Source of the DNA: Acidobacteriota bacterium
Lineage (GTDB): Bacteria > Acidobacteriota > Terriglobia > Acidiferrales > UBA7541
Direction of reading: 5' to 3'
Assembly (NCBI GenBank): GCA_013289835.1
Contig: JABCZG010000027.1
Coordinates: 951 to 64,950, forward strand
DNA length: 64,000 nucleotides
Shown here piece after piece: positions 2,474 through 62,370 of the stretch (its first letter is position 1; each line of letters opens with the position of its first letter). The translations under genes and the position numbers were made by a program. The notes beneath the pieces are model-generated. The model was not told the origin of the DNA, did not search any database, and was given only the letters and a program-made list of their open reading frames with translations.

Positions 2474-3925
2474 ATGCAAGCCGAGGAGAGGCTGAGACCC
2501 ATGGGGGAAGAAACTCGCGCGGCAGTGCGTGCGGTGGAAACGCAAGAGCGGAAGGACCGCGTCCTGATTGTGGAGGACGAGGACAACGCACGCAAAGGCT
2601 ACGAACAACTTTTGCAGCGCTGGGGCTGCGATGTTCTCGGCGTGGGCACGGCGGAAGAGGCGCTGGCGAAATTTGCGGGCTATCAACCGGATGCGCTGAT
2701 CGCGGACGTGGAATTGCCGGGGATGAATGGGTTGGATCTGCTGAAACAGCTCGGGTTGGAACTGCTAGATGTTCCCGCGATTGTAATCACCGGCAAAGGA
2801 AGCGAAGAGCGCGCCGTCGCGGCCATCGAAGCCGGAGCGTTCTGGTACATCGAGAAGCCGCTGAAGGGGCCAGTGCTGCGGGCGCTGCTGGATCGCGCTC
2901 TGCGGCGAGCGCGCGATGCGCGGCAGCTCGCTGTGTTGCAGCGGCAACTGCGCGAGGCGGGGCGGCTGGGCGACCTGGTGGGCGGGTCGAAGCCGATGCA
3001 GGAAGTGATGCGCATTGTGGAAATGGCGGCGCCGAGTTCGGCATCCGTGCTGATTACCGGCGAAACGGGATCGGGCAAAGAGATTGTTGCGCGGACGATC
3101 CACAAACTTTCGCCGCGCGCGGGCGGCCCCTTCGTGGCCATCAATTGCTCGGCGATTCCGGAAACGTTGATGGAAAGCGAAATTTTCGGGCACGAGCGGG
3201 GCGCGTTCACGGGCGCGGCGGAACGGCGCATCGGCTGTTTCGAATTGGCGGATGGCGGGACGTTGCTGCTGGATGAGATTGGCGAAATGCCCGCGCCGAC
3301 GCAGGCGAAGCTCTTGCGCGTTCTGGAAGATCGAAAAGTTCGCCGGCTGGGAAGCAAGAGCGAAACGCCGGTGGATGTGCGCGTACTGGCAGCGACAAAC
3401 AAAGAAGCGGAGCAGGCGGTGAGCAGCGGGCTGATGCGGCAGGATCTTTTTTTCCGCTTGAACGTGTTTCACATCAACTTGCCGCCGCTGCGCGAACACA
3501 AGGACGACATTCCGCTGCTCGTCGAACATATTCTGCGCGACTTGAATGCCAAGCACGGGAAGCATGTGCGAGGCATCGGCGCGGAAGTTCTGGACATTTT
3601 TATGGGGCATACGTGGCCGGGAAATATTCGCGAGCTGCGAAACGTGCTGGAGCGCGCTTCCATCATGTGCGAGAAGGATTTGATTACGCGTGCGTGCCTG
3701 CCGGGAGAATTCGGGAAAAATGTATCGAAGGGACCGAGCGATCTTTCCGCCATTAAATTCCCGGTGGGGACGACGGTGGACGCGATGGAGCGCGAATTGA
3801 TTTTGCAGACGCTGGGCGCGACCGGAAACAACAAGACGCGCGCGGCGGAATTGCTGGGCATCAGCCTGAAGACGCTGCACAACAAATTGAAAGAATACGG
3901 CGGCGATCGCGCCGAGACGGAGTAG
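2474..3925 (+). CDS. Sigma-54-dependent response regulator (NtrC family: REC + AAA+ + Fis-type HTH)
   Basis: REC domain (RVLIVEDEDNARKGY..., DALIADVELPGMNG). AAA+ Walker A (GETGSGKE), GAFTGA loop, ESEIFGHERGAFTGA, and a C-terminal HTH (NKTRAAELLGISLKTLHNKL). The start is ATG 2474 or 2501; the track's 2291 start adds an implausible leader. Confidence 0.9.
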   Translation: MQAEERLRPMGEETRAAVRAVETQERKDRVLIVEDEDNARKGYEQLLQRWGCDVLGVGTAEEALAKFAGYQPDALIADVELPGMNGLDLLKQLGLELLDVPAIVITGKGSEERAVAAIEAGAFWYIEKPLKGPVLRALLDRALRRARDARQLAVLQRQLREAGRLGDLVGGSKPMQEVMRIVEMAAPSSASVLITGETGSGKEIVARTIHKLSPRAGGPFVAINCSAIPETLMESEIFGHERGAFTGAAERRIGCFELADGGTLLLDEIGEMPAPTQAKLLRVLEDRKVRRLGSKSETPVDVRVLAATNKEAEQAVSSGLMRQDLFFRLNVFHINLPPLREHKDDIPLLVEHILRDLNAKHGKHVRGIGAEVLDIFMGHTWPGNIRELRNVLERASIMCEKDLITRACLPGEFGKNVSKGPSDLSAIKFPVGTTVDAMERELILQTLGATGNNKTRAAELLGISLKTLHNKLKEYGGDRAETE

Positions 3926-3934
3926 GGACGCGGG

Positions 3935-5791
3935 ATGCAGCTGCGGCTGCGGACAAAGCTCACGCTGGTGATGACGGGGCTGGTGCTGCTCGTCGCGGCG
4001 GTCTTGTCTGGCGTGTTTGCGGCGCAACTTCTCGATCAACTGTTACAAGCCACCAGCAAGCGCGCCAGCGATCTGGCGGGGCAGGTTTTTCTTCAAGCGC
4101 AACATGCGCTGACGGACGCCGGAGAGCAGGGTTTGCGGCCGGCGTCAGACAGTCCTCAGGAAATCCACGACTACGTACGGCACGCTTTCGAAATCAATGA
4201 AGGCCTTCGCACGCAGCTGAAAGCGGCGAAAGAGAATCCGCTGATCTATGAAGTCTCCATCACGGACCATGAGGGGATGGTGCTGATCTCGACGGATGAG
4301 AACCTGCCGGGGAAATTTCTGCCGAGAAGAACGCCGCTTTCGCAATTGGTGCAGCGAAATTTCCTGCATCAAGTGAAGGTGTTGGCCAGTCCGCCACAAA
4401 TTTACGAACTTGATTATCCATTCACCAAGGGCGGGCAGCCTTTCGGAGAAGTGCGCATGGTGCTCTCTTCGGGATTTTTGTTGAATGACATCGAGCCAAG
4501 CTTGCGGACGTCTGGAACGATCGTGCTGGTGGCATTGGTGATTTCCACGCTGCTGGCGGCGGTGGTCAGCGGCGCGACGCTTGCTCCGCTGCGTGACATC
4601 GCTGCGCAACTCGACCGCATTTCCGCGGGGGAATACGATGCCCCTTCGCCAGAGGTAAGAGGCTTTGCGGGAGGCGGCGATGAACTTGGGTTAGTGAGCC
4701 GGAAAATTACGCAGGTGGGACAGCAGTTGCGCGGGGTGCATGAGATTTTCAGCACCATGCGCGAGAACATGAATTCGGTGATGGCCGGGCTGGAAGACGG
4801 TTTGCTGTTGTTCACCCGGGATTCGCGCGCGGTAATGATCAGTCCGGCGGCGGAGAAATTTCTTGGGGCTCCCGCGGGGCACTTTCTGGGGAAGCGCGTG
4901 ACGGAGATTTTTCCGGTCGGACATCCGCTGCATGAGGCGATGCGCATTGAGAGTGATGAATTGAGCGAAGTGGCTGCAGAGATCGAGCTGGAAACGAGCG
5001 AAGGGCCGAAACGCGTGAGCGTTAGCGTGCAGGCAATTCAGGAAGATGGCGAGCGCATGGGCGCGCTGGTGACGCTCCGCGACCTCGATTCGCTGGAAAG
5101 CATCAATACGCAACTGCAGGTAAGCGAGCGGCTGGCGGCGCTGGGGCGTATCACGGCAGGCGTGGCGCACGAAGTGAAAAATCCCCTGAACTCCATGCGA
5201 CTGTGGCTGGAAAATTTGAAAGAGTCGCTCCCGCCGGACCAAGAGAGCGCGTCGCAGCAAGCCGTGCAGGTGCTGGACAAAGAGATCGACCGGCTCGATG
5301 CGGTGGTCAAGCGGTTCCTGGATTTTACGCGGCCGATGGATGTGCGGCTGGAGGCCACGCAACTTTCCGAATTGTTGAAAGATGTGTTGGAACTTGCCCA
5401 GCCGCAGTTCCAGAAATCGAATATCCAGTTAGCCCAATTGCTGCCAATTGACGTACCGGTGGTCTACGTGGATCGCGCGCTGCTGAAGCAGGCGGTGCTA
5501 AATCTGGTGCTGAACGCGGCCGAAGCCATGCCGAACGGCGGTCTACTGCGGCTGGTGCTGAGCCGGCGCGGCGAAATGGCGGAGATCACGGTTGGGGACA
5601 CCGGCAAAGGAATCTTGCCGGAAAATCGTCAGAAAATTTTTCAGTTGTTCTTCACCACCCGTCCAGGAGGCAGTGGGATCGGCCTGGCGAGCGCGTTTCG
5701 AATTGTGCAGCTTCACAACGGTTCGATAGACTTTACTTCGGAGGTCGGGCGAGGCACGACGTTCCGAATCGAACTGCCGCTCGCCGCCTGA
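3935..5791 (+). CDS. Sensor histidine kinase (2 TM, HAMP, PAS-like, HisKA, HATPase_c)
   Basis: Two hydrophobic segments flank a ~150-aa extracytoplasmic region. H-box AHEVKNPLNSMRLWLENL, N-box LNLVLNAAEAM, G-boxes GDTGKGI and GSGIGLA. It lies 9 nt downstream of the regulator. Confidence 0.9.
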   Translation: MQLRLRTKLTLVMTGLVLLVAAVLSGVFAAQLLDQLLQATSKRASDLAGQVFLQAQHALTDAGEQGLRPASDSPQEIHDYVRHAFEINEGLRTQLKAAKENPLIYEVSITDHEGMVLISTDENLPGKFLPRRTPLSQLVQRNFLHQVKVLASPPQIYELDYPFTKGGQPFGEVRMVLSSGFLLNDIEPSLRTSGTIVLVALVISTLLAAVVSGATLAPLRDIAAQLDRISAGEYDAPSPEVRGFAGGGDELGLVSRKITQVGQQLRGVHEIFSTMRENMNSVMAGLEDGLLLFTRDSRAVMISPAAEKFLGAPAGHFLGKRVTEIFPVGHPLHEAMRIESDELSEVAAEIELETSEGPKRVSVSVQAIQEDGERMGALVTLRDLDSLESINTQLQVSERLAALGRITAGVAHEVKNPLNSMRLWLENLKESLPPDQESASQQAVQVLDKEIDRLDAVVKRFLDFTRPMDVRLEATQLSELLKDVLELAQPQFQKSNIQLAQLLPIDVPVVYVDRALLKQAVLNLVLNAAEAMPNGGLLRLVLSRRGEMAEITVGDTGKGILPENRQKIFQLFFTTRPGGSGIGLASAFRIVQLHNGSIDFTSEVGRGTTFRIELPLAA

Positions 5792-14773: not shown

Positions 14774-16165
14774 TTATTCCGGCTTGCGCAAGGACTGCAG
14801 GTCGATTCCCAGCTGTTGGCACTTCTTATAGAGGTGACTGCGCTCGAGACCCAGCGCGCGCGCCACATTGGTCATGTGAAAGTTGTGGCGGCGAATCTCC
14901 GCCAACATCACTTCCCTCTCGAATGCTTCCGTGCGTTCCGCCAGCGTGCCGGTTGCGTTTCCAGATGAGCCTGATGCTGCGCTCGCAGCGTCGCCCTCCG
15001 ACGTTGGCAGAATCAGGCGAACGTCCGCGGCGGTAATGTTTTCGTCCGCAGCTAGCAAAATGAGCCGCTCCACGACATTGCGGAGTTCGCGCACATTTCC
15101 CGGCCACCCGTACTTACGCAATTCCGCGATGGCATCGTCCGCAAAAATCTTCTGCTTCCATCCATTCTGCGCCGCCACTTGCCCGGCAAAATGCGCGGTC
15201 AATTCCGGAAAGTCTTCCGGGCGTTCGCGAAGCGGCGGCAACGTTAGCGGAAAAACATAAATGCGGTGAAAAAGGTCGCGGCGGAACGCGTTCTGCTTCA
15301 CCAGCTCTTCCAGATTCCGGTGCGTGGCCACGACGACGCGCACGTTCACACGAATGGGTTTGTCGCCGCCAACGCGTTCGACCTCGCCTTCCTCCAACAC
15401 GCGCAACAGCTTCGCCTGCATGGCCACCGGCATATCGCCGATTTCATCCAGAAACAACGTGCCGCCGTCCGCTTGTTCGAATTTACCGACATGCTTGGCC
15501 GCAGCTCCGGTGAAGGCGCCTTTCTCGTGACCAAAAAGCTCCGATTCGATCAACTCCGCCGGAACCGCCGCGCAATTCAAAGTAATAAACGGATTCTCAT
15601 GCCGCGGCGATTTCTCATGAATCGCGCGAGCAACAAGCTCTTTCCCCGTGCCGGTTTCGCCCAGGATGCACACCCGCGTTTCGCTCGCGGCCACGCGCTC
15701 GATCTGCGCCATCAGTTTCTTCATCGCCGGCCCCGAGCCGACGAGTTCGTGCTTTCCCAAACGATGGCGCAGCTCGCGATTTTCATCTTCCAGCCGCGAA
15801 AGGCGCAGCGCATTTTCGACCGTCAGCAGCAGCTTGTCCGTCGACAGCGGCTTTTCCAGAAAGTCGAGTGCGCCAAGCTTCGTGGCCTTCACCGCCATTT
15901 CAATATTGGCCTGTCCGGAAATGAGGATGATCGGCGTCTTGACTCCTGCCTTCTTCAAATCTTCCAGCAACTCCAAACCGCTGCGCCCGGGCATCACCAC
16001 ATCCGAAAGAATAAGATCGAAGGATTCCGTCCGGAGAAGCTCCACGGCACGCGCGGCATTGTCGCAAACTGTCGCTTCATGCCCCGCCAGGCGGAACGCG
16101 CGCGAAAGCGATGCCAGGGTGTTCGGGTCGTCATCAACGAGGAGCAGGTGAGCTTTGCGCGGCAA
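14774..16165 (-). CDS. Sigma-54-dependent response regulator (NtrC family)
   Basis: REC domain (HLLLVDDDPNT..., DLILSDVVMPGRSG). AAA+ domain (GETGTGKE, GAFTGA, ESELFGHEKGAFTGA) and C-terminal HTH (NVARALGLERSHLYKK). Confidence 0.9.
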   Translation of the reverse strand: MPRKAHLLLVDDDPNTLASLSRAFRLAGHEATVCDNAARAVELLRTESFDLILSDVVMPGRSGLELLEDLKKAGVKTPIILISGQANIEMAVKATKLGALDFLEKPLSTDKLLLTVENALRLSRLEDENRELRHRLGKHELVGSGPAMKKLMAQIERVAASETRVCILGETGTGKELVARAIHEKSPRHENPFITLNCAAVPAELIESELFGHEKGAFTGAAAKHVGKFEQADGGTLFLDEIGDMPVAMQAKLLRVLEEGEVERVGGDKPIRVNVRVVVATHRNLEELVKQNAFRRDLFHRIYVFPLTLPPLRERPEDFPELTAHFAGQVAAQNGWKQKIFADDAIAELRKYGWPGNVRELRNVVERLILLAADENITAADVRLILPTSEGDAASAASGSSGNATGTLAERTEAFEREVMLAEIRRHNFHMTNVARALGLERSHLYKKCQQLGIDLQSLRKPE

Positions 16166-16186: not shown

Positions 16187-18046
16187 CTAATCGGAAGCGG
16201 CGGCGAGAGTCGGCGGCGTGCTTTTCGTCTCGGAAGCAGTCTCCTTCGAAACGATGACCACGCCAGACTGGCGCTGCGGCAGATCCATTCGGAACGTCGT
16301 GCCGCGCTCTTCCGAACTGGTCACGGAAATCGTTCCGTGATGGTCACTGACGACCGACTGCACAATCGCAAGTCCCAGCCCGGTTCCCTGCAATTTTGTC
16401 GTGTAATAAGGTGTGAACAATCGCGAGCACTCTTCCGGCGTAAGGCCCTTGCCGGTGTCCGAAATTTCGATGCGCGCGTTGCCATCGTGCTCCGAAGTTC
16501 TCAGCGTAAGCGTCCCGCCCGCGGGCATGGCATCCAGCGCATTGAGGATCAAATTCTGAAACGCGCGATGGAGCAAATCCGGGTCCGCATCAATCTCCGG
16601 CAAAGGATCGGTCAAGAACAACTCCGGCGTAATCGTCGGTTTCCCCACCTCGTTGAACTGCGGCTCGAAGAGCCGCACCGCATTTCGCAGCGACTCATTC
16701 ACGTTCACGCGCGCAAACTGCGGCGCAGGCATCTTCGAAAAATCGCTGAAGCGCGTGACGATGGTGTTGAGATTCGCCAGTTCCGTCTTCAACGTCGCCG
16801 TGGACTCGTTGAAAACTTCCAGGAACTGCTTGGCCTCAAGCTTGCGAGCCTTCTGCAGATTTTCCACCGTAATTTGCATGGGAAAAAGCGGATTGCGCAA
16901 TTCATGCGCCAAACGCCGTGCCAGTTCGCGCCACGCCGCCACGCGCTCGGTCTGCACCAGCCGTTCTTTCTGCGCCGCCAGCGTCTGCGTCATGTGATTG
17001 AAAGCTTCGGCCAGTTGTCCGATTTCATCGCCGCCGCGGACGTCAATGTGCGTGTCCCATCTTCCAGCGGCCACTTCGCGCGCGCCCTCCGCAAGCTCTT
17101 CCACCGGCTTAGTAATGCGCGCGGAAATCCAGAACGCCATCAATAGTCCGACGAACAGCGCACCCGCGCCCACAGCCACCGCGATCTTCACAATTTTGTT
17201 GGTCAGAAGAACAAGTTCTTTGCGCGAACTCCCCACCAGAAAAATGCCCAGCAATTCATTATTCCTTCCCATCAGCGGAATGGCGTGAAACGCTTCCGCA
17301 TCGGCCGGATCACTCGACCAATCGATCGTGCGCACCAGCGGGCGTGGCTGCTTTTGAATCTGCTCGACAAGGGGAGCAAACCGTTCGGGCTGCTCGACGT
17401 CTCCTTTCGCGGAAATCAGCGCCGCGGGAACAAAAGCTTGTTCCAAATTCGTGTAAATCAGCGTACGCATTCCGGCAGGCAGGACCAGCGATTCCAGAAA
17501 TTTCTTATCGAGGCGGCGCCCGCCAACAATGTAAAACGGCTTGGGAACATTCGGTTGTGTGCGAACCACCGTCAACGAGAGAGCCACCTCCGTCGGAAGT
17601 TCTTCCCGCGACAGAAAAGCGGAAGAGGTATTCCAATCGGCGGTCGAAACAAGCCAATCATTCTTATAACCGACGCGCGCGGGATACTGCGCCGAGGAAA
17701 TCAAGGTCCCATCGCTATTCACGAATTCCACAAAATCCAAGCCATGATCTTGCGCCGCGCCATTGGCATCGCGCACATATAGGGATTGGTCCGCGTTGGG
17801 TCGCCCCAGGTCAATGGCCATGCGCAGCGTCACTTCCGCATTCGCAATGTTTTCCACCTGACGCGCGATCTCTTCCCCGCGCTGCGCAAATTCTTTGTTG
17901 AATTGAGCGACGAGCGCTTCCGTGCGCTGCGCGTCCATCTCTTCGAACGCCTCGCGCGTGTAGTACGTCACGCCGTAGGCCACCACCGTCACGGAGGCAA
18001 AAATGATGAGCAATACGATGAGCAGCAGTTTTGTTCGAAAGCTCAT
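16187..18046 (-). CDS. Sensor histidine kinase (large periplasmic domain, HAMP, HisKA, HATPase_c)
   Basis: Two TM segments bracket a ~270-aa periplasmic domain. H-box AHELRNPLFPMQITVENL, N-box LILNALDAM, G-boxes DTGKGL and GTGLGLAIV. Confidence 0.9.
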   Translation of the reverse strand: MSFRTKLLLIVLLIIFASVTVVAYGVTYYTREAFEEMDAQRTEALVAQFNKEFAQRGEEIARQVENIANAEVTLRMAIDLGRPNADQSLYVRDANGAAQDHGLDFVEFVNSDGTLISSAQYPARVGYKNDWLVSTADWNTSSAFLSREELPTEVALSLTVVRTQPNVPKPFYIVGGRRLDKKFLESLVLPAGMRTLIYTNLEQAFVPAALISAKGDVEQPERFAPLVEQIQKQPRPLVRTIDWSSDPADAEAFHAIPLMGRNNELLGIFLVGSSRKELVLLTNKIVKIAVAVGAGALFVGLLMAFWISARITKPVEELAEGAREVAAGRWDTHIDVRGGDEIGQLAEAFNHMTQTLAAQKERLVQTERVAAWRELARRLAHELRNPLFPMQITVENLQKARKLEAKQFLEVFNESTATLKTELANLNTIVTRFSDFSKMPAPQFARVNVNESLRNAVRLFEPQFNEVGKPTITPELFLTDPLPEIDADPDLLHRAFQNLILNALDAMPAGGTLTLRTSEHDGNARIEISDTGKGLTPEECSRLFTPYYTTKLQGTGLGLAIVQSVVSDHHGTISVTSSEERGTTFRMDLPQRQSGVVIVSKETASETKSTPPTLAAASD

Positions 18047-24885: not shown

Positions 24886-26295
24886 CTAAGGCCTCTTCGG
24901 CTGCCGTTTCTGCGCCGAAGCCGAAGCCGTCGGCGTCACATCTTCCGACCCATCGTCCGCAGAACTGCTGCTCACTCCCGAAAACGCCGACCGCATCACG
25001 TCATTCGCAAAGAAATTCTTCCCATCCATCGGCACCATCATGATCTGCAGCTTGTCCGACAGCCGCTCCGCGATAATCTTCTGAATCAGCATCGGATTCG
25101 ACTTCAGCACCGCCGCCTCGAATTTCATCCGCTCGGAATCCGCCGCAGCCGTCACCCGGATGCGATTCGCGTCCGCGTCCGCCGTCACGCGAATCCGATT
25201 CGCCTCCGCGTCCGCCAGATTCTTCTGCCGCTCGATCTCCGCCTTGCTATCAATAATTTTCGCTTGTGCCGCCGCTTCCGCATTTTGCAGCGTGGACTCC
25301 TTCCGCGCCTCCGCCTCCAGCTTGCTCTGCTCGATCTGTTTCTGTTTCAGCGGCAGCGTGTACTGCATCGCGTCCGCTTCCGCCTTGGCCTGCAGCACGC
25401 GCACCTGTGCCTGCGCCTCCGCCTGCTTCACCTCGCGCGCCTTCTGCGCTTCCGCTTCCAGCTCCGCAATCTTCACTTCTTTCCCCTTGATCTCCGTCTC
25501 CGTGCCCAGTCGCTCGTTCTCCTGCTCCTTCAGCAGCAGTCCTTCGAGCCCCTTGGCGTATTCCTCCGGCAGTTTCAAGTCGCGCAGCAAAACTTCGCGC
25601 ACCACAATCCCGTCGCTCGCCAGCCGCGTAGTAATCGCGTCCGCCGCCTTGGTGCGCAGCTCCTCCCGCTTCGTCGCAAAAATTTCCCGCGTGATGTAAT
25701 TGGGCGCCAGTTGCCGGTAAATCGTCGAAACCACCGGAGCCACCACCTGCTCCCCCACCGGCTGCGGCAGATTCGTGTGAATCGAATCCAGCCTCTTGGG
25801 GTCCAGCCGGTACCGCACGGAAACCGCCAGCCCGATGTTCAACCCTTCGCGCGCCTGCACCGTCAGCACGTCACCCTTGTGCTTTGGATCTTCGGCCACC
25901 TGCGTCGAATACACTTGCTCGCGCGTGTCGTAGATCGCCACGGAATCCACCAGCGGCGTAACCACATGCACGCCGGGATACAACGTACCCGGCCGCGCGC
26001 CCCAGATTTGGCTGACGCGTACGCCGGCCGTTCCATCCGGAATCACCACCACGCTCTCCGTAATCAAGAACGCCAGCACTCCCGCCGCAAACAATTGTAG
26101 CGCCAGCCTCCATCGCACCGGCCGGAAAGGGCGCCGAGCCAGCGCACCCACCTCCCCGCCGCCTTCCTCCGTCTTCCCCCGCGACAGCAACCGCCTCAAT
26201 TGCTCCGACAGAAAAATGTCATACGCCACCAGCGCCCCCGCGCTCCCAAACAGCACTGCCCCCACAATCGTCAACAAATATTTCAATGCCAGCAT
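24886..26295 (-). CDS. SPFH/band-7 (prohibitin/HflK-C-like) membrane protein with long coiled-coil tail
   Basis: N-terminal TM helices, an SPFH core (VVIPDGTAGVRVSQIWG...VHVVTPLVDSVAIYDTRE), then a ~200-aa EA/KQ-rich coiled coil. SD AAGGGAG lies upstream of ATG 26295. Confidence 0.85.
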   Translation of the reverse strand: MLALKYLLTIVGAVLFGSAGALVAYDIFLSEQLRRLLSRGKTEEGGGEVGALARRPFRPVRWRLALQLFAAGVLAFLITESVVVIPDGTAGVRVSQIWGARPGTLYPGVHVVTPLVDSVAIYDTREQVYSTQVAEDPKHKGDVLTVQAREGLNIGLAVSVRYRLDPKRLDSIHTNLPQPVGEQVVAPVVSTIYRQLAPNYITREIFATKREELRTKAADAITTRLASDGIVVREVLLRDLKLPEEYAKGLEGLLLKEQENERLGTETEIKGKEVKIAELEAEAQKAREVKQAEAQAQVRVLQAKAEADAMQYTLPLKQKQIEQSKLEAEARKESTLQNAEAAAQAKIIDSKAEIERQKNLADAEANRIRVTADADANRIRVTAAADSERMKFEAAVLKSNPMLIQKIIAERLSDKLQIMMVPMDGKNFFANDVMRSAFSGVSSSSADDGSEDVTPTASASAQKRQPKRP

Positions 26296-26328
26296 CGCCT
26301 AACTCCCTTCTGTTCCATTTCCGGAGCC

Positions 26329-26550
26329 AGTAGCACAGACACTCTTGTCTGTGCTCTTAGCTCTCGGCCAAACCCCAGTAGCACAGACACTCCTGTCTGT
26401 GCTCTTAGCTCTCGGCCAAATCCCAGTAGCACAGACACTCTTGTCTGTGCTCTTAGCTCTCGGCCAAATCCCAGTAACACAGACACTCTTGTCTGTGCTC
26501 TTAGCTCTCGGCCAAATCCCAGTAGCACAGACACTCCTGTCTGTGCTCTT
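26329..26550 (+). repeat. Tandem array A: 4.6 copies of a 48-bp REP-like unit (GTAG + 10-bp-stem hairpin)
   Basis: Unit starts at 26329, 26377, 26425, 26473 and 26521, an exact 48-nt period. Each unit is CCAGTAGCACAGACACTC(T/C)TGTCTGTGCTCTTAGCTCTCGGCCAAA(T/C)C. The hairpin is AGCACAGACA-CTCT/CTCC-TGTCTGTGCT. Confidence 0.95.
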
Positions 26551-26617
26551 CATTGCAAATCCTGTAGCTCAGGCCGTCCATGCGCCCGCCAATAGAGCGC
26601 CCATAACCACCACTCAC

Positions 26618-26815: not shown

Positions 26816-26957
26816 GACGTGCCTCCAAATCCTGCGATTTGGTGAATCGCACGCCCATGCCCTATTCGAATGTATTGGAAATAAACGACTTACAGGAAAG
26901 CCCTGCCCAAAACTCCGTGGCCCACGTTACACGTCGTGTCGCCCTACCCGCACATCC

Positions 26958-27212
26958 GCCTTTGTAGCACAGTCACTCCTGACTGTGCTCTTCTCCTCTA
27001 TCCCCGGATCTGCCTTTGTGGCACAGCCATTCCTGGCTGTGCTCTTCTCCTCTACCCCCGGATCTGCCTTTGTGGCACGGCCATTCCTGGCTGTGCTCTT
27101 CTCCTCTATCCCCGGATCTGCCTTTGTGGCACAGCCATTCCTGGCTGTGCTCTTCTCCTCTACCCCCGGATCTGCCTTTGTGGCACAGCCATTCCTGGCT
27201 GTGCTCTTCTCG
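26958..27212 (+). repeat. Tandem array B: 4.7 copies of a 54-bp REP-like unit
   Basis: Unit starts at 26958, 27012, 27066, 27120 and 27174, an exact 54-nt period. Each unit is GCCTTTGT(A/G)GCACAG(TCA/CCA)-(CTCC/TTCC)-(TGA/TGG)CTGTGCTCTTCTCCTCTA(T/C)CCCCGGATCT. The first copy has stem TCA/TGA; later copies have CCA/TGG. Confidence 0.95.
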
Positions 27213-27221
27213 CCCATCCGC

Positions 27222-27246
27222 GTAGGGGCACGATACATCGTGCCCC
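27222..27246 (+). repeat. Single REP-type element: GTAG + palindrome GGGGCACGAT/ATCGTGCCCC
   Basis: GTAGGGGCACGATACATCGTGCCCC lies directly after array B. It has the classical REP layout of a GTAG head followed by a GC-rich palindrome. Confidence 0.7.
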
Positions 27247-27424
27247 TCTGGCTCTCCGTGTAGGGCTCGCCTTCCGAGGCGGGCCGCTCCCGCAGCGCCG
27301 TAGGCGCACCACAATTTAGCCCAGCCCGTAAGGGCTGGGAATCGTAGCCAGAAAAAATCCCAAGCACCGGAGGTGCGACACCCCTCCGCGCCCTTTGCCT
27401 CCCGGACGCGATTGTGAGACGGAG

Positions 27425-27575
27425 GGATCCTCCAATCCTTCCCAACCTGCCAACCTTTAAACCTTCAAACGTTCAAACGGTCCTTCTCCCCATCCCCGCA
27501 TCTGCCTTCGTAGCACAGTCACTCCTGACTGTACTCTTCTCCCTATTCGCACTGGCGCACGGTCCATCGTGCCCA
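27425..27575 (+). repeat. Mosaic of repeat modules (CCAACCTTCAAAC module, solitary B-type hairpin, degenerate GCACG palindrome)
   Basis: 27430-27478 (CCAATCCTTCCCAACCTGCCAACCTTTAAACCTTCAAACGTTCAAACG) matches 30668-30708 and 30970-31008. 27503-27540 is a solitary copy of the array-B unit (CTGCCTTCGTAGCACAGTCACTCCTGACTGTACTCTTCT). 27556-27575 is a degenerate copy of the 27222 palindrome. Confidence 0.8.
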
Positions 27576-30282: not shown

Positions 30283-30314
30283 CCCCGTCCTCGGCCTTGG
30301 AGGGCGGGGGTTTT
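30283..30314 (+). terminator. Rho-independent terminator
   Basis: CCCCGTCCTC (30283-30292), loop GGCCTTG, GAGGGCGGGG (30300-30309; one G-U pair), then GTTTTG. Confidence 0.6.
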
Positions 30315-30370
30315 GACTCTTCCTCGACTTCCAGCGACGCGCTTCCGCCCCGATCCGCATCCACTTGCAG

Positions 30371-31010
30371 ACAAACCACTTATAATTATCACTTGACAAT
30401 AGGTACGGACCTGCTATAATGGCTTTGTTGCTTCGGCACTGATCCTTGGCGCCCGGCCCTCATGCCCTCGCCCCGAGCAGTCCTTCTAACTCCTTCAAGA
30501 TCATCAGTCCTCACTCAGTTACCTTCTTGCCAACAGACCGTACCCATAAATCCTTTAGACGCAACACTTGCAGACTCCCTCGCATGTGCTGCAAACAAAC
30601 GACTTACGCCAAACCTAAGTCCTGTAGATGCAACACTTACAAAAAACCCCGGGGTGGGCTCCCGAACCTCCCAATCTTCAAACCTGCCAACCTTCCAACC
30701 TTCAAACGATCCCCGCCCTAACTCCTTTCTCCTCACATCCTTAGCAGCCCCCCACCCACTAACCCCCATCGAATCACATCCTTACAAAAATCATAGGGGG
30801 GCCACTTCTTCCCCCGCGTGCTCCGAGCCTCTCGGAGAGGGGGGTACTCCTCTTTTCCATAGTCACCAAAATATCTCACGCCCTTTCTTTTCAAGCACTT
30901 ACAAATTGCCCATTTTCTATCCCCTTTGTTTTGACATTCATCCATGTAATGGGGGGTATGGCCCCCTACCAACGTTCCAACCTTCAACCTTCCAACCTTC
31001 AAACGTTGCC
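30371..31010 (+). repeat. Promoter-bearing dispersed repeat, copy X (possible ncRNA or mobile leader)
   Basis: It aligns block by block with the reverse complement of 61921-62370. Shared blocks include TATCACTTGA, GCTATAATGG, CATGCCCTCGC, GTCCTTCTAACTC, CAGTTACCTT.TTGCCAACAG, AAATCCTTTAGA.GCAACACTTGCA, GTGCTGCAAA.AAACGACTTACG, TAAGTCCTGTAGATGCAACACTTACAAAAAACC, and ATTGCCCATTTTCTATCCCCTTTGTTTTGACATTCATCCAT. Copy X carries about 140 nt extra (about 30655-30795). Confidence 0.85.
30393..30420 (+). promoter_or_regulatory. Consensus sigma-70-type promoter at the head of repeat copy X
   Basis: TTGACA (30393-30398), a 16-nt spacer, TATAAT (30415-20), with an AT-rich stretch upstream (CTTATAATTATCAC). 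The same architecture is conserved in the inverted copy at 62324-62351. Confidence 0.6.
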
Positions 31011-31071
31011 CCCATGCGGACCCGCCCCGCGCCCGTCAACGCAGTATGCTAGGCTAATCTTGAGAACAGAG

Positions 31072-32217
31072 ATGAACCGCGGATCAGGCTTACGCATCGG
31101 CAAAATTCTTGGAATCCCCATCTACCTCCACTCAACGTGGATCTTTATTTTTGCCGCCTTCACCTACATCATCGCCATGCAGTTCAAGGAGCAGCATCCC
31201 GCCTGGTCGGACACCCAGCATTGGGTCGTCGGCGTCCTCACCAGCCTGCTCTTTTTCGCCTCGGTGGTCTTCCACGAGCTCTCCCACAGCGTCGTGGCCC
31301 AGCATTACAAGATTCGCGTCCTTTCCATCACCCTGTTTCTCTTTGGCGGCTTGGCGCGCATCGAGCGCGATCCGTCCAAGGCCATCCAGGAATTCAACAT
31401 CGCCATTGCCGGACCGCTGGCCAGCGGATTCCTCGCCGCCTGCTTTTTTGGTTTGACCAAGCTTTTCCCGTTCGATCAATCGGTTGGAGCGATGGCCCTC
31501 TGGCTCTGCCAGACGAACGCTGCACTCGCCGTTTTCAACCTCTTGCCGGGATTTCCGCTCGACGGCGGAAGAATTTTCCGCGCCATCGTTTGGGGAGCGA
31601 CCAAGAGTTTCGAGAAAGCGACTCGTGCCGCAGGCTCCAGCGGAAAGATCATCGCCTACGCCTTAATCGTCGGCGGCGCCTGGGAAGTCTTTCACGGCTA
31701 TGTTCAATCAGGGCTCTGGACCGCCTTCATCGGCTGGTTCCTCCTGAACGCCGCCCAGGAAAGCGTCGCTCAGGTGGCTATCCGCGCAAACTTGGCCGGC
31801 CTCAGCGCCGCCGATGTGATGAGCCCCGAAGTTCCCACCGTGGACGGCCACATCACGCTCGAGGACTACGGCGCGGAAGTGCTGCGCACCGGCCGCCGCT
31901 GCCACATCGTTCTGATGGGCGACCGCCTCTCCGGCCTGATGAACGTCCACTCCCTGAATTCCGTGCCGCGCGAGGAGTGGGCGCACAACTCCGTGCAGTC
32001 CGCCATGATTCCGCGCGAGAAAATTCTGTGGACTTCGCCCGACGAGCCGCTGCTCCGTTTGCTCGAACGGTTGCTCACCACGGACATCAATCAAATGCCG
32101 GTGGTGAGCAGTTCCGGCGAAGGCGATTCCCATGTCGTTGGCATGGTCACGCGCGATTCCATTCTCCGCGTAGTGCAAACGCGCACCGAGCTAGGCCCAC
32201 TCGCCGCGGAGAAATAA
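31072..32217 (+). CDS. Site-2 protease (M50 family) with C-terminal CBS pair
   Basis: HELSHSVVA (HExxH) and FNLLPGFPLDGGR motifs in a multi-TM N-terminal half. The C-terminal half has two CBS-like modules (...VMSPEVPTV..., ...INQMPVV...VVGMVTRDSIL). Start at MNRGSGLRIGKILGIPIYLH. Confidence 0.85.
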   Translation: MNRGSGLRIGKILGIPIYLHSTWIFIFAAFTYIIAMQFKEQHPAWSDTQHWVVGVLTSLLFFASVVFHELSHSVVAQHYKIRVLSITLFLFGGLARIERDPSKAIQEFNIAIAGPLASGFLAACFFGLTKLFPFDQSVGAMALWLCQTNAALAVFNLLPGFPLDGGRIFRAIVWGATKSFEKATRAAGSSGKIIAYALIVGGAWEVFHGYVQSGLWTAFIGWFLLNAAQESVAQVAIRANLAGLSAADVMSPEVPTVDGHITLEDYGAEVLRTGRRCHIVLMGDRLSGLMNVHSLNSVPREEWAHNSVQSAMIPREKILWTSPDEPLLRLLERLLTTDINQMPVVSSSGEGDSHVVGMVTRDSILRVVQTRTELGPLAAEK

Positions 32218-60308: not shown

Positions 60309-61721
60309 TTAACCCTCGCGGAGTTTGTGGCCGGCGAGATTGCCGAGGCCGTCGTAGGCGGCATATTTGTAGGTTTCACTGAGCGTGGGATAGTTGAAAA
60401 CCTGTTCGATGAATTCGTCGATCGTAAGTCCGTTGTCGAGAACCATCATGCCGATGTGAATGAGTTCGGTGGCAATTTCGCCGATGATGCTTACGCCGAG
60501 GAGTTTTCTATCGCCGCGGGCGAAGATGAGTTTGAGCATGCCTGCGGTGTCGCCGGTGATGTGCCCTCGCGCATTATTTTCGTAAAGAGCGCGGCCAACG
60601 ACGTAATCAAGTTTCTTTTCCTTGCAGGATTCCTCGGTCTCGCCGGCCGCTGAAATTTCTGGAATGGTGTAGATACCCATGGGCAGAAGCGAGGCGACAC
60701 GCTGTTTATACTTCAGGTGAAAGGCGTGGCAGATAGCGACACGGCCCTGCTCCATCGAAGTGGAAGCTAAAGCGGGAAAACCGATCACATCACCAGCGGC
60801 GTAAATGTGGGGAACGGCGGTGCAATAGTGTTCGTCCACGGCGATGTAGCCACGGTCGTTGATGGAGAGACCGGTTTTTTCCAGCGCGAGGCCGTCCACG
60901 GCGGCGCGGCGCCCGGCGGCGAAGAGCGCGGCGTCGGTTGCGAGGACTTTGCCGCTCTTCATGGTGAGGCGAACCCCGGTTGCGGAGTTTTCGGTTTTAA
61001 CGGGGCGCTCGTTGAACCAGAAGTGCATGCCGAGCGCCGCTAAGCGGTCACGCAGACGATCCGAAATTTCGTTATCGAGAAATGGAAGAAGGCGATCGCG
61101 GCCATCCACGAGAGTGACGTCAACGCCGAGGGCTTTGAAAATGGAGGCGTATTCACAACCGATGACGCCGCCGCCGATCACGGCGAGGCTCTTGGGGATG
61201 CGGTCCATCTGCAGAAACGTGTCCGAGTCAAAGGTATGAATGTCGTCGAAGGCGATCTCCGAGGGGCGATGCGGCTTGGAACCGGTGGAAATGAGAATGA
61301 CATCGCCTTTCAGGCGGCGCGTGCCATTCGGTCCCGAAACAGCGACGGTGTGCGAATCTTCGAAGGAGGCCTGGCCGCGAATTAGTTCGATCTTGTGTAG
61401 CGCGAGATTTTTCAGGATGCGCTGGCGCTCCATGTCCACCACTTCGCGCTCGTGGTGCATGAAGTCGTGGACGGTGAGATTTTCTTTCAGCGAGTAGTCA
61501 ATTCCGTAGAGGCCGCGTTGCTTCAAGCCGGAGAAGTAAAGCGCAGATTCGCGAAGCGTTTTGCTGGGGACCGTGCCGGTGTTGATGCAACTGCCGCCCA
61601 TGTGCTCGGCGCGTTCGATGACGGCGACGCGCTTGCCGAAATACGCGGCCTGGGCGCCGCCCTTTTCACCGGCGGGCCCGCAGCCAATCACGATCAGGTC
61701 AAACGTGTCGCTTGCAGTCAC
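60309..61721 (-). CDS. sthA: Soluble pyridine nucleotide transhydrogenase (Si-specific)
   Basis: FAD motif VIGCGPAGE. The site GGSCINTGTVPSK has a single Cys (second Cys replaced by Thr), as in SthA rather than lipoamide dehydrogenase. NAD motif VIGGGVIGCEYA. Confidence 0.8.
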   Translation of the reverse strand: MTASDTFDLIVIGCGPAGEKGGAQAAYFGKRVAVIERAEHMGGSCINTGTVPSKTLRESALYFSGLKQRGLYGIDYSLKENLTVHDFMHHEREVVDMERQRILKNLALHKIELIRGQASFEDSHTVAVSGPNGTRRLKGDVILISTGSKPHRPSEIAFDDIHTFDSDTFLQMDRIPKSLAVIGGGVIGCEYASIFKALGVDVTLVDGRDRLLPFLDNEISDRLRDRLAALGMHFWFNERPVKTENSATGVRLTMKSGKVLATDAALFAAGRRAAVDGLALEKTGLSINDRGYIAVDEHYCTAVPHIYAAGDVIGFPALASTSMEQGRVAICHAFHLKYKQRVASLLPMGIYTIPEISAAGETEESCKEKKLDYVVGRALYENNARGHITGDTAGMLKLIFARGDRKLLGVSIIGEIATELIHIGMMVLDNGLTIDEFIEQVFNYPTLSETYKYAAYDGLGNLAGHKLREG

Positions 61722-61920: not shown

Positions 61921-62370
61921 ACCCCCTACCACCCATTCGATGGATGAATGTCAAAACAAAGGGGATAGAAAATGGGCAATTTGTAAGTGGCTGAAAACAC
62001 AGTGGCGACCGAATTTTGGTGCCGATGGGAAAAGAGGAGCACCCCCACTCCGAGCGGCTCTGAGCGCGGGAAGGTAGCAGCGCCTCCCACTCCCGGTTTT
62101 TTGTAAGTGTTGCATCTACAGGACTTATGTTTTTCGTAAGTCGTTTATTTGCAGCACCTGCGAGGGGGCGTGCAAGTGTTGCATCTAAAGGATTTACGGA
62201 CGCTAACTGTTGGCAATAAGGTAACTGATAGGGAGGGATGGAAGGGGAAAGAGTTAGAAGGACCGCGTGGCGCGAGGGCATGACAGGCGAGGCACGAAAA
62301 AACAGTGCCAGCGCAACCAAACCATTATAGCGGGTCGGTACTCTTTCTCAAGTGATAACTCCAAGTGCTT
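61921..62370 (-). repeat. Promoter-bearing dispersed repeat, copy Y (inverted relative to copy X)
   Basis: Reverse complement aligns with 30371-30968 (see copy X). It lacks the ~140-nt block present in X. It lies ~200 nt upstream of, and co-oriented with, sthA. Confidence 0.85.
62324..62351 (-). promoter_or_regulatory. Sigma-70-type promoter at the head of repeat copy Y
   Basis: Minus-strand read: TTGAGA (62351-62346), a 16-nt spacer, TATAAT (62329-62324). Positions are homologous to the promoter of copy X. Confidence 0.55.

Follow-up and report, generated by a model that had tools for sequence, protein, structure and literature searches.

A clade-specific family of putative noncoding transcription units with a repeat-derived 3' domain in Candidatus Acidiferrales-type Acidobacteriota

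A stretch of 64,000 nucleotides (nt) from an Acidobacteriota bacterium (GenBank assembly GCA_013289835.1, contig JABCZG010000027.1, positions 951 to 64,950 of the forward strand), here called the window, carries two copies of an intergenic element that begins with a sigma-70 promoter directed into the element itself. The copies, X (30366-30961, plus strand) and Y (62378-61924, minus strand), are read here, with moderate confidence, as members of a clade-specific family of paralogous noncoding transcription units with a repeat-derived 3' domain in Candidatus Acidiferrales-type Acidobacteriota. This reading builds on the sequence architecture of the element, its pattern of conservation, the distribution of its copies, its noncoding character and the coupling of its promoter to the repeats in its 3' domain, all of which are established by the comparisons described below.

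The host's order comprises uncultured Acidobacteriota that rank among the most abundant bacteria in soil. To our knowledge, almost nothing is known about RNA-level regulation in this order, and no description of an Acidobacteriota repeat or small RNA (sRNA) of such a kind was found in the literature. The element would supply a testable set of candidate highly expressed noncoding RNAs (ncRNAs) with predicted start sites.

Two copies of a promoter-bearing repeat

X and Y are a homologous pair that aligns in two blocks at ~80% identity. In a BLASTN comparison of X with the window, the first block matched 30366-30658 to 62378-62086 (79.8% over 297 nt, E = 4e-66) and the second matched 30781-30961 to 62107-61924 (80.1% over 186 nt, E = 6e-38), in good agreement with the 75-85% that an earlier note on this DNA had estimated by eye. 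The homology is split by an insertion of ~140 nt in X (~30660-30800), which is absent from Y. It had been placed to start about 20 nt upstream of the -35 hexamer; the start is indeed upstream, at ~27 nt according to BLASTN. At the other end, it stops at 30961. An 8-nt tandem repeat, AACCTTCN, follows at 30963-31016; it is not common to Y and recurs at 30665-30711 and 27436-27482. The earlier note had described a repeat of 400-550 nt. Its homology is real, but it is not a single unit: it is a mosaic of separable modules, in which a conserved core of ~290 bp is followed by unrelated, exchangeable short modules. X and Y are the only copies of the core in the window, as judged with a hidden Markov model (HMM) of the promoter and the head.

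The promoters that had been noticed at the start of both copies are present as described. In X, TTGACA-16 nt-TATAAT at 30393-30420 (+) matches the consensus hexamers at 12 of 12 positions and has a TG ahead of the -10, whilst TTGAGA-16 nt-TATAAT of Y at 62351-62324 (-) matches at 11 of 12. When both strands of the full 64 kb were scanned for sigma-70 sites with at least 11 of 12 matches, these two were the only ones.

Anatomy of the element

The core consists, in this order, of an upstream box with the promoter, a 5' hairpin, a G-depleted, C-rich stretch of 90 nt, three 26-nt units (TAAGTCCTTTAGATGCAACACTTACA) in forward, inverted and forward orientation, an A6 run and a G-run. Conserved motifs of the element include GUCCUUCUAACUCCUUC and unit 3. 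Behind the core, X and Y both carry a 42-nt hairpin module and then a 3' block, whereas the 8-nt repeat array and a module with the end ...CTTACAAAAATCATAGGGGGG are found only in X. The parts of X are as follows.

30350-30392 (+): upstream box ATCC..CAAACCACTTAYAAKTAAT, 5' boundary of the family core (X-Y similarity from 30366; in the locus pair L060/L078, onset ~45 nt before the -35)
30393-30420 (+): sigma-70-type promoter TTGACA-16 nt-(TGC)TATAAT, with a predicted start near 30427
30435-30453 (+): 5' hairpin GGCAC..loop..GCGCC (stem columns 94% paired in 14 copies, with one compensatory change and one G-U)
30457-30546 (+): G-depleted, C-rich stretch (G 12%, C 42%) with motifs GTCCTTCTAACTCCTTC and CAGTTACCTTCTTGCCAAC, predicted to be single-stranded (unpaired in the consensus fold)
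30547-30572 (+): repeat unit 1, TAAATCCTTTAGACGCAACACTTGCA (pattern match; alignments of core and tails)
30582-30607 (+): repeat unit 2, GCATGTGCTGCAAACAAACGACTTAC, inverted and complementary to units 1 and 3 (unit 1-unit 2 helix 79% paired)
30616-30641 (+): repeat unit 3, TAAGTCCTGTAGATGCAACACTTACA, the most conserved unit (exact 22-mer at no fewer than 114 loci)
30641-30659 (+): A6 run, then C/G run AAAAAACCCCGGGGTGGGC, 3' end of the core (A-run and G-run conserved in alignments; target site of an insertion sequence (IS) at 30643-30650)
30660-30801 (+): X-specific inserted modules, i.e., 8-nt tandem repeats (30665-30711) and a module ending CATCCTTACAAAAATCATAGGGGGG (gap in the X-Y alignment)
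30802-30844 (+): 42-nt hairpin module ..GCTCCGAGCCTCTCGGAGAGGGGGG, its 3' end overlapped by a weak terminator-like hairpin plus CTCTTTTCC (terminator-like hits 30827-30851)
30845-30961 (+): 3' block with 50 nt identical to Y (CACTTACAAATTGCCCATTTTCTATCCCCTTTGTTTTGACATTCATCCAT) and a G-run at its end (X-Y alignment)
30963-31016 (+): 8-nt tandem repeats AACCTTCN between X and a protease gene (repeat family)

The corresponding parts of Y are the following.

62324-62351 (-): promoter TTGAGA-16 nt-TATAAT, with a predicted start near 62317
62291-62309 (-): 5' hairpin GGCAC-TGTTTTTTC-GTGCC (sequence, fold)
62197-62288 (-): G-poor, C/U-rich stretch, homologue of X 30457-30546 (alignments)
62102-62196 (-): three-unit tail with unit 1 at 62196-62171, inverted unit 2 at 62161-62136 and unit 3 at 62127-62102 (pattern match, alignment)
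62083-62101 (-): A-run, then G-run AAAAACCGGGAGTGGGAGG (alignment)
62042-62082 (-): 42-nt hairpin module, then a weak terminator-like hairpin plus TCTTTTCCC (terminator-like hits 62056-62036)
61924-62041 (-): 3' block, homologue of X 30845-30961 (alignment, BLASTN)

The 5' hairpin was found in most of 23 copies. Its inner pairs and loop sizes vary, and the variants GGCAC/GTGCC, GGCGCG/CGCGCC and GCGGC/GCCGC form the same stem with different sequences. The lowest G content of any 400-nt segment of the 64 kb is found in the X region (13.8% G vs. 30% overall). Both the retained hairpin and this strand asymmetry favor the reading as a noncoding transcription unit. The X-specific modules of 30660-30801 recur at other loci (L043, L031, L106, L113, and L016), and the 3' block of X is 91-95% identical to that of L084, L072, L033, L051, and L076. 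A candidate second promoter in this block (TTGACATTC...) was discarded, as it has no -10 at a usable spacing.

The region behind the G-run holds further short modules. Arrays of the 8-nt repeat (AACCTTCN / AACGTTCN), such as the three in the window, have similar counterparts after the G-run in L043, L031, L106, L110, and L094. About 20 loci (e.g., L049 at 563-640, L103, L090, L110, L067, and L107) have another module in this place, composed of GTTATGGTTAACYAG, a hairpin with locus-specific yet complementary arms, and TCCTGA. The ATG of this module sits 6-9 nt past a GGAGG-like run and opens a mini-ORF (open reading frame) of 3-12 codons.

Copies, conservation and age

Collecting core copies with the HMM of promoter plus head gave 25 non-redundant X-type copies in at least 10 Candidatus Acidiferrales-type metagenome-assembled genomes (MAGs), among them six in MFD03346.bin.1.51 and four in MAG38. 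Thus, the element is multicopy, as the earlier note had supposed, and the order of its parts is identical in all core copies. The 22-mer of the unit matches at least 114 genomic stretches; among the matches listed, nearly all are from Acidobacteriota MAGs, labeled Candidatus Acidoferrum/Acidiferrum, 'gp2' or uncultured Acidobacteriota, with the lineage Terriglobia, Candidatus Acidiferrales. A scan of metagenomes for further cores returned five loci, three of which are the same locus.

The columns of the promoter hexamers and the 5' stem are conserved best. Column identity, computed on an alignment of 14 core copies, is as follows.

-35 hexamer: 0.92
-10 hexamer: 0.88
5' stem: 0.94-0.96
Unit 3: 0.95
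Start-site region: 0.58
Loops and spacers: 0.2-0.65

Conservation of the promoter, which the earlier note had seen in X and Y, extends to the family. The core is also retained at orthologous sites. Loci L060 (MAG38) and L078 (MFD03346.bin.1.51) share both flanking genes, with amino acid (aa) identities of 83% and 91% (best tblastx match per flank). Their alignment is random until ~45 nt 5' of the -35, continues at ~80% through the core, and ends shortly past the G-run. The downstream gene is also common to L091 and L003, where the element lies 5' of COX1, and to L047 and L004, where it lies 5' of xseA. Divergence is alike for paralogues and orthologues (75-82% identity), which fits old copies that are held by selection rather than a recent burst; X and Y are read as two old paralogues.

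Coupling of tail units to promoters

The three-unit tail is far more widespread than the core (more than 114 loci) and often occurs without an X-type core. Among 94 tail-bearing loci with enough flanking sequence, 40 have a sigma-70 promoter with at least 10 of 12 matches on the same strand, 90-500 nt upstream of the tail. The controls, i.e., the opposite strand of the same region, promoters downstream pointing away and promoters downstream pointing back, each gave 1 of 94, and the background rate of 0.046 sites per strand-kb predicts ~2% per region. Of the 40 promoter-bearing tails, 24 are not X-type: they belong to several other, non-homologous 5' families, many of which are C-rich and G-poor. 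At a few of the non-X-type loci, a short terminated unit lies ahead of the tail. In ~0.94 Mb of sampled sequence, which was chosen for the presence of the tail, about half of the near-consensus sigma-70 promoters lie 5' of one 26-nt unit. Within this tail-selected sample, the association hints at a considerable, so far hidden set of short transcription units.

Most units read TTTAGATGC, and GTAG is limited to CCTGTAGATGC variants, including unit 3 of X and Y. In 65 tails, the units are paired at 77-79%, compared with no more than 41% in slid controls. Relative to neighboring genes, tails are found in either orientation, and the next gene of the promoter-bearing tail loci is co-oriented in 24 cases and opposite in 15. 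A role of the tail as the terminator of a convergent gene was rejected, since opposite-oriented downstream genes are not enriched. A search with Rfam of 18 loci for known stable RNAs upstream of other tails revealed none, and only one unrelated fluoride riboswitch was encountered; in L087, a fluoride riboswitch (RF01734) lies just 3' of the tail on the same strand.

Some tails have other conspicuous sequences in their vicinity. In L021, L026, L085, and L087, an operator-like palindrome, TTGCACAATTTTGGTGCAA, abuts unit 1 on the upstream side. In L030, L034, L029, L058, L065, and L025, units of ~60-80 nt with a strong promoter, an AGGTAA motif, a GC hairpin and a T-run are located 100-250 nt 5' of the tail; these are possible small RNAs without a match in Rfam. 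In the window, a lone fragment resembling unit 2, GGAAATAAACGACTTACA, is present at 26877-26894 (+) beside a ATTCGAATG motif, and the latter is also found ahead of the promoters in another tail-associated family (L014, L056, and L036).

Coding potential

Starting from an ATG at 30462, a frame remains open across the units and makes up an ORF of 196 aa in X. The element could encode a small protein or a translated leader. Several features speak for this possibility. The ATG is kept in 13 of the 14 aligned copies, and the frame is free of stops in 13 of 14, albeit with an ATA start in one of these and a +1 frameshift in another, whereas the other open frame acquired five stops by substitution, with similar numbers of mutational routes to a stop in the two frames (18 vs. 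22). Furthermore, most indels are multiples of three or compensated. However, variability at codon positions 1, 2, and 3 is 0.30, 0.34, and 0.345, respectively, without periodicity (permutation p = 0.34). The frame is disrupted or shifted in L060, in L115 and, as judged by eye, in L114; L082 has ATA in place of the start codon, and L095 and L097 have GTG; and no ribosome-binding site lies ahead of the frame. The sequence is of low complexity, and its openness is expected from a G content of 12-15%. A protein search with the ORF gave only 27 weak, nameless hits, which are uninformative as a census. On the basis of the missing periodicity, the frameshifts and the absent ribosome-binding site, coding in the forward frame was rejected. 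A protein product appears highly improbable, and the 196-aa ORF is very likely a by-product of the low G content. This matters for annotation: public metagenome annotations call a 196-aa gene at 30462-31052 (+) of the window (L120, L121, and L124), and spurious ORFs through these elements are being annotated as genes in metagenomes.

Two other candidates were dismissed. In a small reverse-strand ORF of the 3' block (MDECQNKGDRKWAICK...), the few substitutions are, by eye, mostly non-synonymous and affect cysteine codons as well. The short contigs L132-L134 were considered as transcripts, but they include the promoter and are, hence, DNA assemblies.

Neighboring genes and the possibility of a leader

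The genes that flank X and Y are the following.

31072-32217 (+): M50 (site-2-type) metalloprotease gene, flank of X (Pfam families)
60309-61721 (-): pyridine nucleotide-disulphide oxidoreductase gene, flank of Y and co-oriented with Y (Pfam PF07992, PF02852, PF00070)

According to a simple gene call based on ORFs and G+C content at third codon positions (GC3), which was applied to about 20 copies, the next gene is co-oriented with the element in 14 copies (11 independent) and convergent in 5-6. The convergent neighbors include a gene for a 415-aa secreted protein in L051, a PurH-like ORF in L031, identified from its N-terminal sequence only, and, in L033, a gene with its own strong terminator. 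Besides the M50 protease and the oxidoreductase, the genes downstream of the copies encode a CCG/4Fe-4S protein, a Rieske oxygenase, AsmA, a thiolase, a fumarase-type lyase, COX1, XseA, KsgA, and PAP2, which are unrelated to each other. The distance from the element to the start codon is 380-680 nt.

The predominance of co-oriented genes raises the possibility that the element acts in cis, as a 'mobile' promoter with a long C-rich untranslated leader for the downstream gene, which could serve as a Rho-dependent attenuator or a stabilizing 5' untranslated region. RNA that is C-rich, G-poor and unstructured is typical of Rho loading sites, and the body of the element resembles such a site. No terminator lies between the element and the downstream gene, and in three orthologous pairs the element has stayed ahead of the same gene. 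Homologous promoter regions 5' of unrelated genes have, moreover, been described already (PMC3575422). These arguments are countered by the convergent genes, which exclude an obligate role as a leader, by the large distances to the start codons, and by the lack of a function common to the downstream genes; a consistently co-oriented gene of one functional class, as for a cis-regulatory leader or a riboswitch, was not found across the copies. The M50 gene has a -10-like box of its own, TGCTAGGCT, at 31047-31055. A TGnTAGGCT box is kept ~20 nt before the ATG of this gene in all orthologous loci (L125, L127, L128, L130, and L131), none of which has the core, and its position implies that the M50 transcript has its own, very short leader. 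A natural IS1595 insertion (see below) separates the core from the M50 gene in a part of the population. A leader function is therefore rather unlikely, while read-through into co-oriented genes is possible. The earlier note had proposed either an ncRNA gene or a mobile promoter/leader cassette. The copy number, the conserved promoter and the noncoding character stand, but an obligate leader or cassette is disfavored, and no canonical terminator accompanies the element.

RNA structure, turnover and the possibility of a DNA-level repeat

In the consensus fold, the 5' hairpin is kept, the C-rich stretch is open, and unit 2 pairs with unit 3 in a helix closed by CCCC/GGGG. The element does not belong to a known RNA family, which agrees with the earlier failure to match it to one: a scan of the whole window, including Y, with Rfam 15 at gathering thresholds found only Acido-Lenti-1, located elsewhere in the window, a permissive scan of 30300-31100 (E up to 10) gave two chance-level hits of 13-15 bits, and a tRNA/tmRNA scan detected nothing relevant.

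A number of observations weigh against a family of noncoding transcription units. The earlier note had proposed covariation as a check; in the 14-copy core alignment, 84-87% of the cells are paired (at most 48% when slid), but covariation is equal to that in shuffles. The unit 1-unit 2 helix, when examined in 65 tails irrespective of context, speaks for the family: both sides are changed in 57 cells, compared with 39.1 in shuffles, and none of 500 shuffles reached 57. However, the number of covarying pairs is not above that in shuffles, and most of the signal stems from UA/AU and GC/UA pairs, by which subfamilies differ; it may represent one or two inherited subfamily changes. Overall, the covariation is no more than suggestive. 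The unit 2-unit 3 helix shows no covariation in the tails, and its center is mismatched in about half of the copies. Unit 2 thus follows unit 1 in its changes, and the near-invariant unit 3 probably stays free, at least in part. The predicted fold of Y is moderately better than that of shuffled sequences (z = -2.4), but that of X is not (z = -0.03), and folding energy was discarded as evidence for X because it does not separate X from shuffled sequence. Furthermore, the mismatches in the hairpins are lopsided, with 305 C.A/A.C, which are G.U on the opposite strand, vs. 97 G.T on the promoter strand. This bias could mean that the palindromes have their role on the opposite strand or at the DNA level; alternatively, pressure to lose G may bear on the promoter strand. 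No canonical intrinsic terminator was found on the element strand in X, in Y, or in four copies with a convergent context (L051, L033, L076, and L031); the terminator-like features of X and Y are weak hairpins of 4-7 bp followed by CTCTTTTCC, and they lie within the optional module. Lastly, orthologues of the M50 gene (~80% aa identity) lack the core and have quite different upstream regions, from which it follows that the core is gained and lost, and L003, L004, and L099 retain only the promoter and the hairpin.

Variation within populations affects mostly the sequence behind the core. Three metagenome contigs of one locus (L116, L117, and L118) are identical, except that a 42-nt hairpin module is inserted after the G-run in L117 and L118, together with an extra 17-nt tandem duplication. 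This polymorphic module is the one also found at 30802-30844 and 62082-62042 of the window. In the population variants L122 (280-2571) and L123, an IS1595-family element of 2,292 bp is inserted directly 3' of unit 3. It comprises a transposase gene and a passenger gene for a 334-aa protein, has the terminal inverted repeat GGGACTAGGTATTTGTTGAAAA, and generated an 8-bp target-site duplication, AAAACCCC, which corresponds to 30643-30650 of the window. The insertion is absent from the window and from L120, L121, and L124. The core is stable, and the sequence beyond the G-run is unstable.

This turnover invites the alternative that the element is, at the DNA level, a mosaic of intergenic repeats, selfish or structural, comparable to REP, BIME or MITE sequences. 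The palindromes would then be DNA sites, e.g., for a transposase, gyrase or a nucleoid protein, and the promoter would be incidental or a mere passenger. The dispersal of the units, often without an X-type core, the presence or absence of modules between near-identical contigs, and the choice of the A/C-run as an IS target would all be in line with this idea, and so would the wholly different intergenic content 5' of the M50 orthologues between lineages, a mismatch spectrum that favors pairing of the opposite strand, the occurrence of tails in both orientations relative to genes, and the presence of classical GTAG-tagged palindromes in the same genomes. On the other hand, the core persists, sharply bounded, at orthologous sites, conserved columns are the promoter hexamers and not the whole sequence, and the paralogues are old, with ~20% divergence. 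Upon inspection only, the edges of the core (a GCTATCCC-type box and the 3' G-run) are not mutually inverted, as those of a MITE would be, and no duplication was seen at X, Y, or L060/L078. The 40 vs. 1 coupling of tail orientation to the promoter has no obvious explanation at the DNA level alone. Such a mosaic is, hence, considered unlikely.

Proposed mode of action

The following proposal for the transcription of the noncoding unit, its 3' end and its mode of action was derived from sequence features. Transcription would start ~7 nt past the TATAAT of a strong sigma-70 promoter, which has an extended -10 and is preceded by a conserved box. The 5' end of the RNA would fold into a short hairpin, followed by the G-depleted, C/U-rich stretch of ~90 nt, which would be single-stranded and expose CUCCUUC-like motifs. 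In the 3' domain, unit 1 would pair with the inverted unit 2, followed by the near-invariant unit 3, the A6 run and the G-run. The terminal structures may protect the ends of the RNA, and the open middle or unit 3 may be the working part, which could act in trans, either by pairing with G-rich ribosome-binding regions or by binding a protein. Given the absence of a canonical terminator, the 3' end is presumably generated by Rho, with the body as a potential loading site, or by trimming back to the hairpins, possibly with read-through into co-oriented genes.

A more far-reaching proposal, which is quite doubtful at present, is that of a superfamily of modular ncRNAs, in which at least four non-homologous 5' head families are fused to one invariant 3' domain with a three-part switch logic. 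Unit 2 would be masked by unit 1 and would otherwise itself mask unit 3 along with the A6 run and the G-run behind it; unit 3 would serve as a shared docking platform for a protein or an RNA, i.e., a constant scaffold combined with a variable head, and new combinations could arise by exchange of modules at the G-runs. If true, these would be undescribed modular noncoding RNAs of Candidatus Acidiferrales.

Other observations in the window

The window contains a 1.35-kb intergenic 'repeat hub', in which a full-length Acido-Lenti-1 RNA (RF01687, 53.8 bits, E = 2.4e-9) was identified at 27294-27339 (-). Tandem arrays are present at 26279-26566 and 26939-27222 (plus 27485-27542), with 5 x 48 nt and 5 x 54 nt. 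Each unit of these arrays is a GTAGCACAG..CTGTGCT hairpin, a classical GTAG-tagged palindrome, and related GTAGC hairpins exist in many loci. Elsewhere, the inverted repeats I1 and I4 (3143-3654 vs. 15066-15577; 188 nt at 73% and 42 nt at 81%) and I7 (further out, 5749-5780 vs. 16276-16307; 32 nt at 91%) suggest a pair of oppositely oriented paralogous genes. Their shared motif translates as GNIRELRN, which is typical of sigma-54 activators.

Comparison with known systems

The element lacks at least one defining feature of each of the REP/BIME repeats, the sibling sRNAs, the mobile promoters and the Correia elements, and is not counted as a member of any of them, although it resembles each in part. 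With the REP/BIME repeats of enterobacteria and the REPINs, it shares short, alternating, extragenic units that can form hairpins at many loci, i.e., imperfect palindromes in many copies, as well as their arrangement in mosaics with other short motifs and a content that varies within populations. In contrast to these repeats, its unit is nearly invariant across genera, is arranged as a fixed triple (forward, inverted, forward) ahead of A6 and a G-run, and is tightly coupled in orientation to a strong upstream promoter. A conserved terminal GTAG (or CGTC) is not seen in most units; the GTAG tag is present in a minority, such as unit 3 of X and Y, and most copies have TTTAG. Genes of the RAYT/TIRYT type have been noted in cultured Acidobacteria (PMC3733652).

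Like the sibling sRNAs (Qrr1-5, LhrC1-5, and the csRNAs), the element occurs as a set of paralogous noncoding units in one genome, which have their own conserved promoters and are independent of the orientation and function of the neighboring gene, and it combines predicted structured ends with an open middle and a conserved C/U-rich stretch, predicted to be single-stranded, that could pair with ribosome-binding sites. It differs in being longer (at least 220 nt), in lacking a Rho-independent terminator, i.e., a hairpin plus U-run, in the six loci inspected for it (see above), and in having a 3' domain that is a dispersed repeat common to unrelated 5' families.

The putative mobile promoters (Matus-Garcia, Nijveen and van Passel, 2012; PMC3575422) are homologous promoter regions 5' of unrelated genes. 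Like the element, they are found within one genome and across taxa and do not match an Rfam family, and their definition (at least 80% identity over at least 50 nt, non-paralogous genes) also applies to X and Y with the identity over the first block, albeit outside the window of -150 to -50. Indeed, the element lies much further from the start codons, about a third of its copies face convergent genes, the copies are old and constrained, and they show ~80% identity over 300 nt rather than >90% over 50-100 nt.

The Correia elements of Neisseria are likewise dispersed intergenic repeats that bring promoter activity and RNA hairpins beside genes. However, the core of the element is without terminal inverted repeats or target-site duplication, its promoter fires inward from the 5' edge, and it is kept at orthologous sites. 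Acido-1 and Acido-Lenti-1 of Rfam are, as the element appears to be, clade-restricted noncoding motifs, but neither these nor any other Rfam family matches the X region in sequence or structure (E up to 10). The superfamily considered above, finally, would follow a logic like that of guide-RNA scaffolds or of a clade-specific sRNA module that binds a chaperone.

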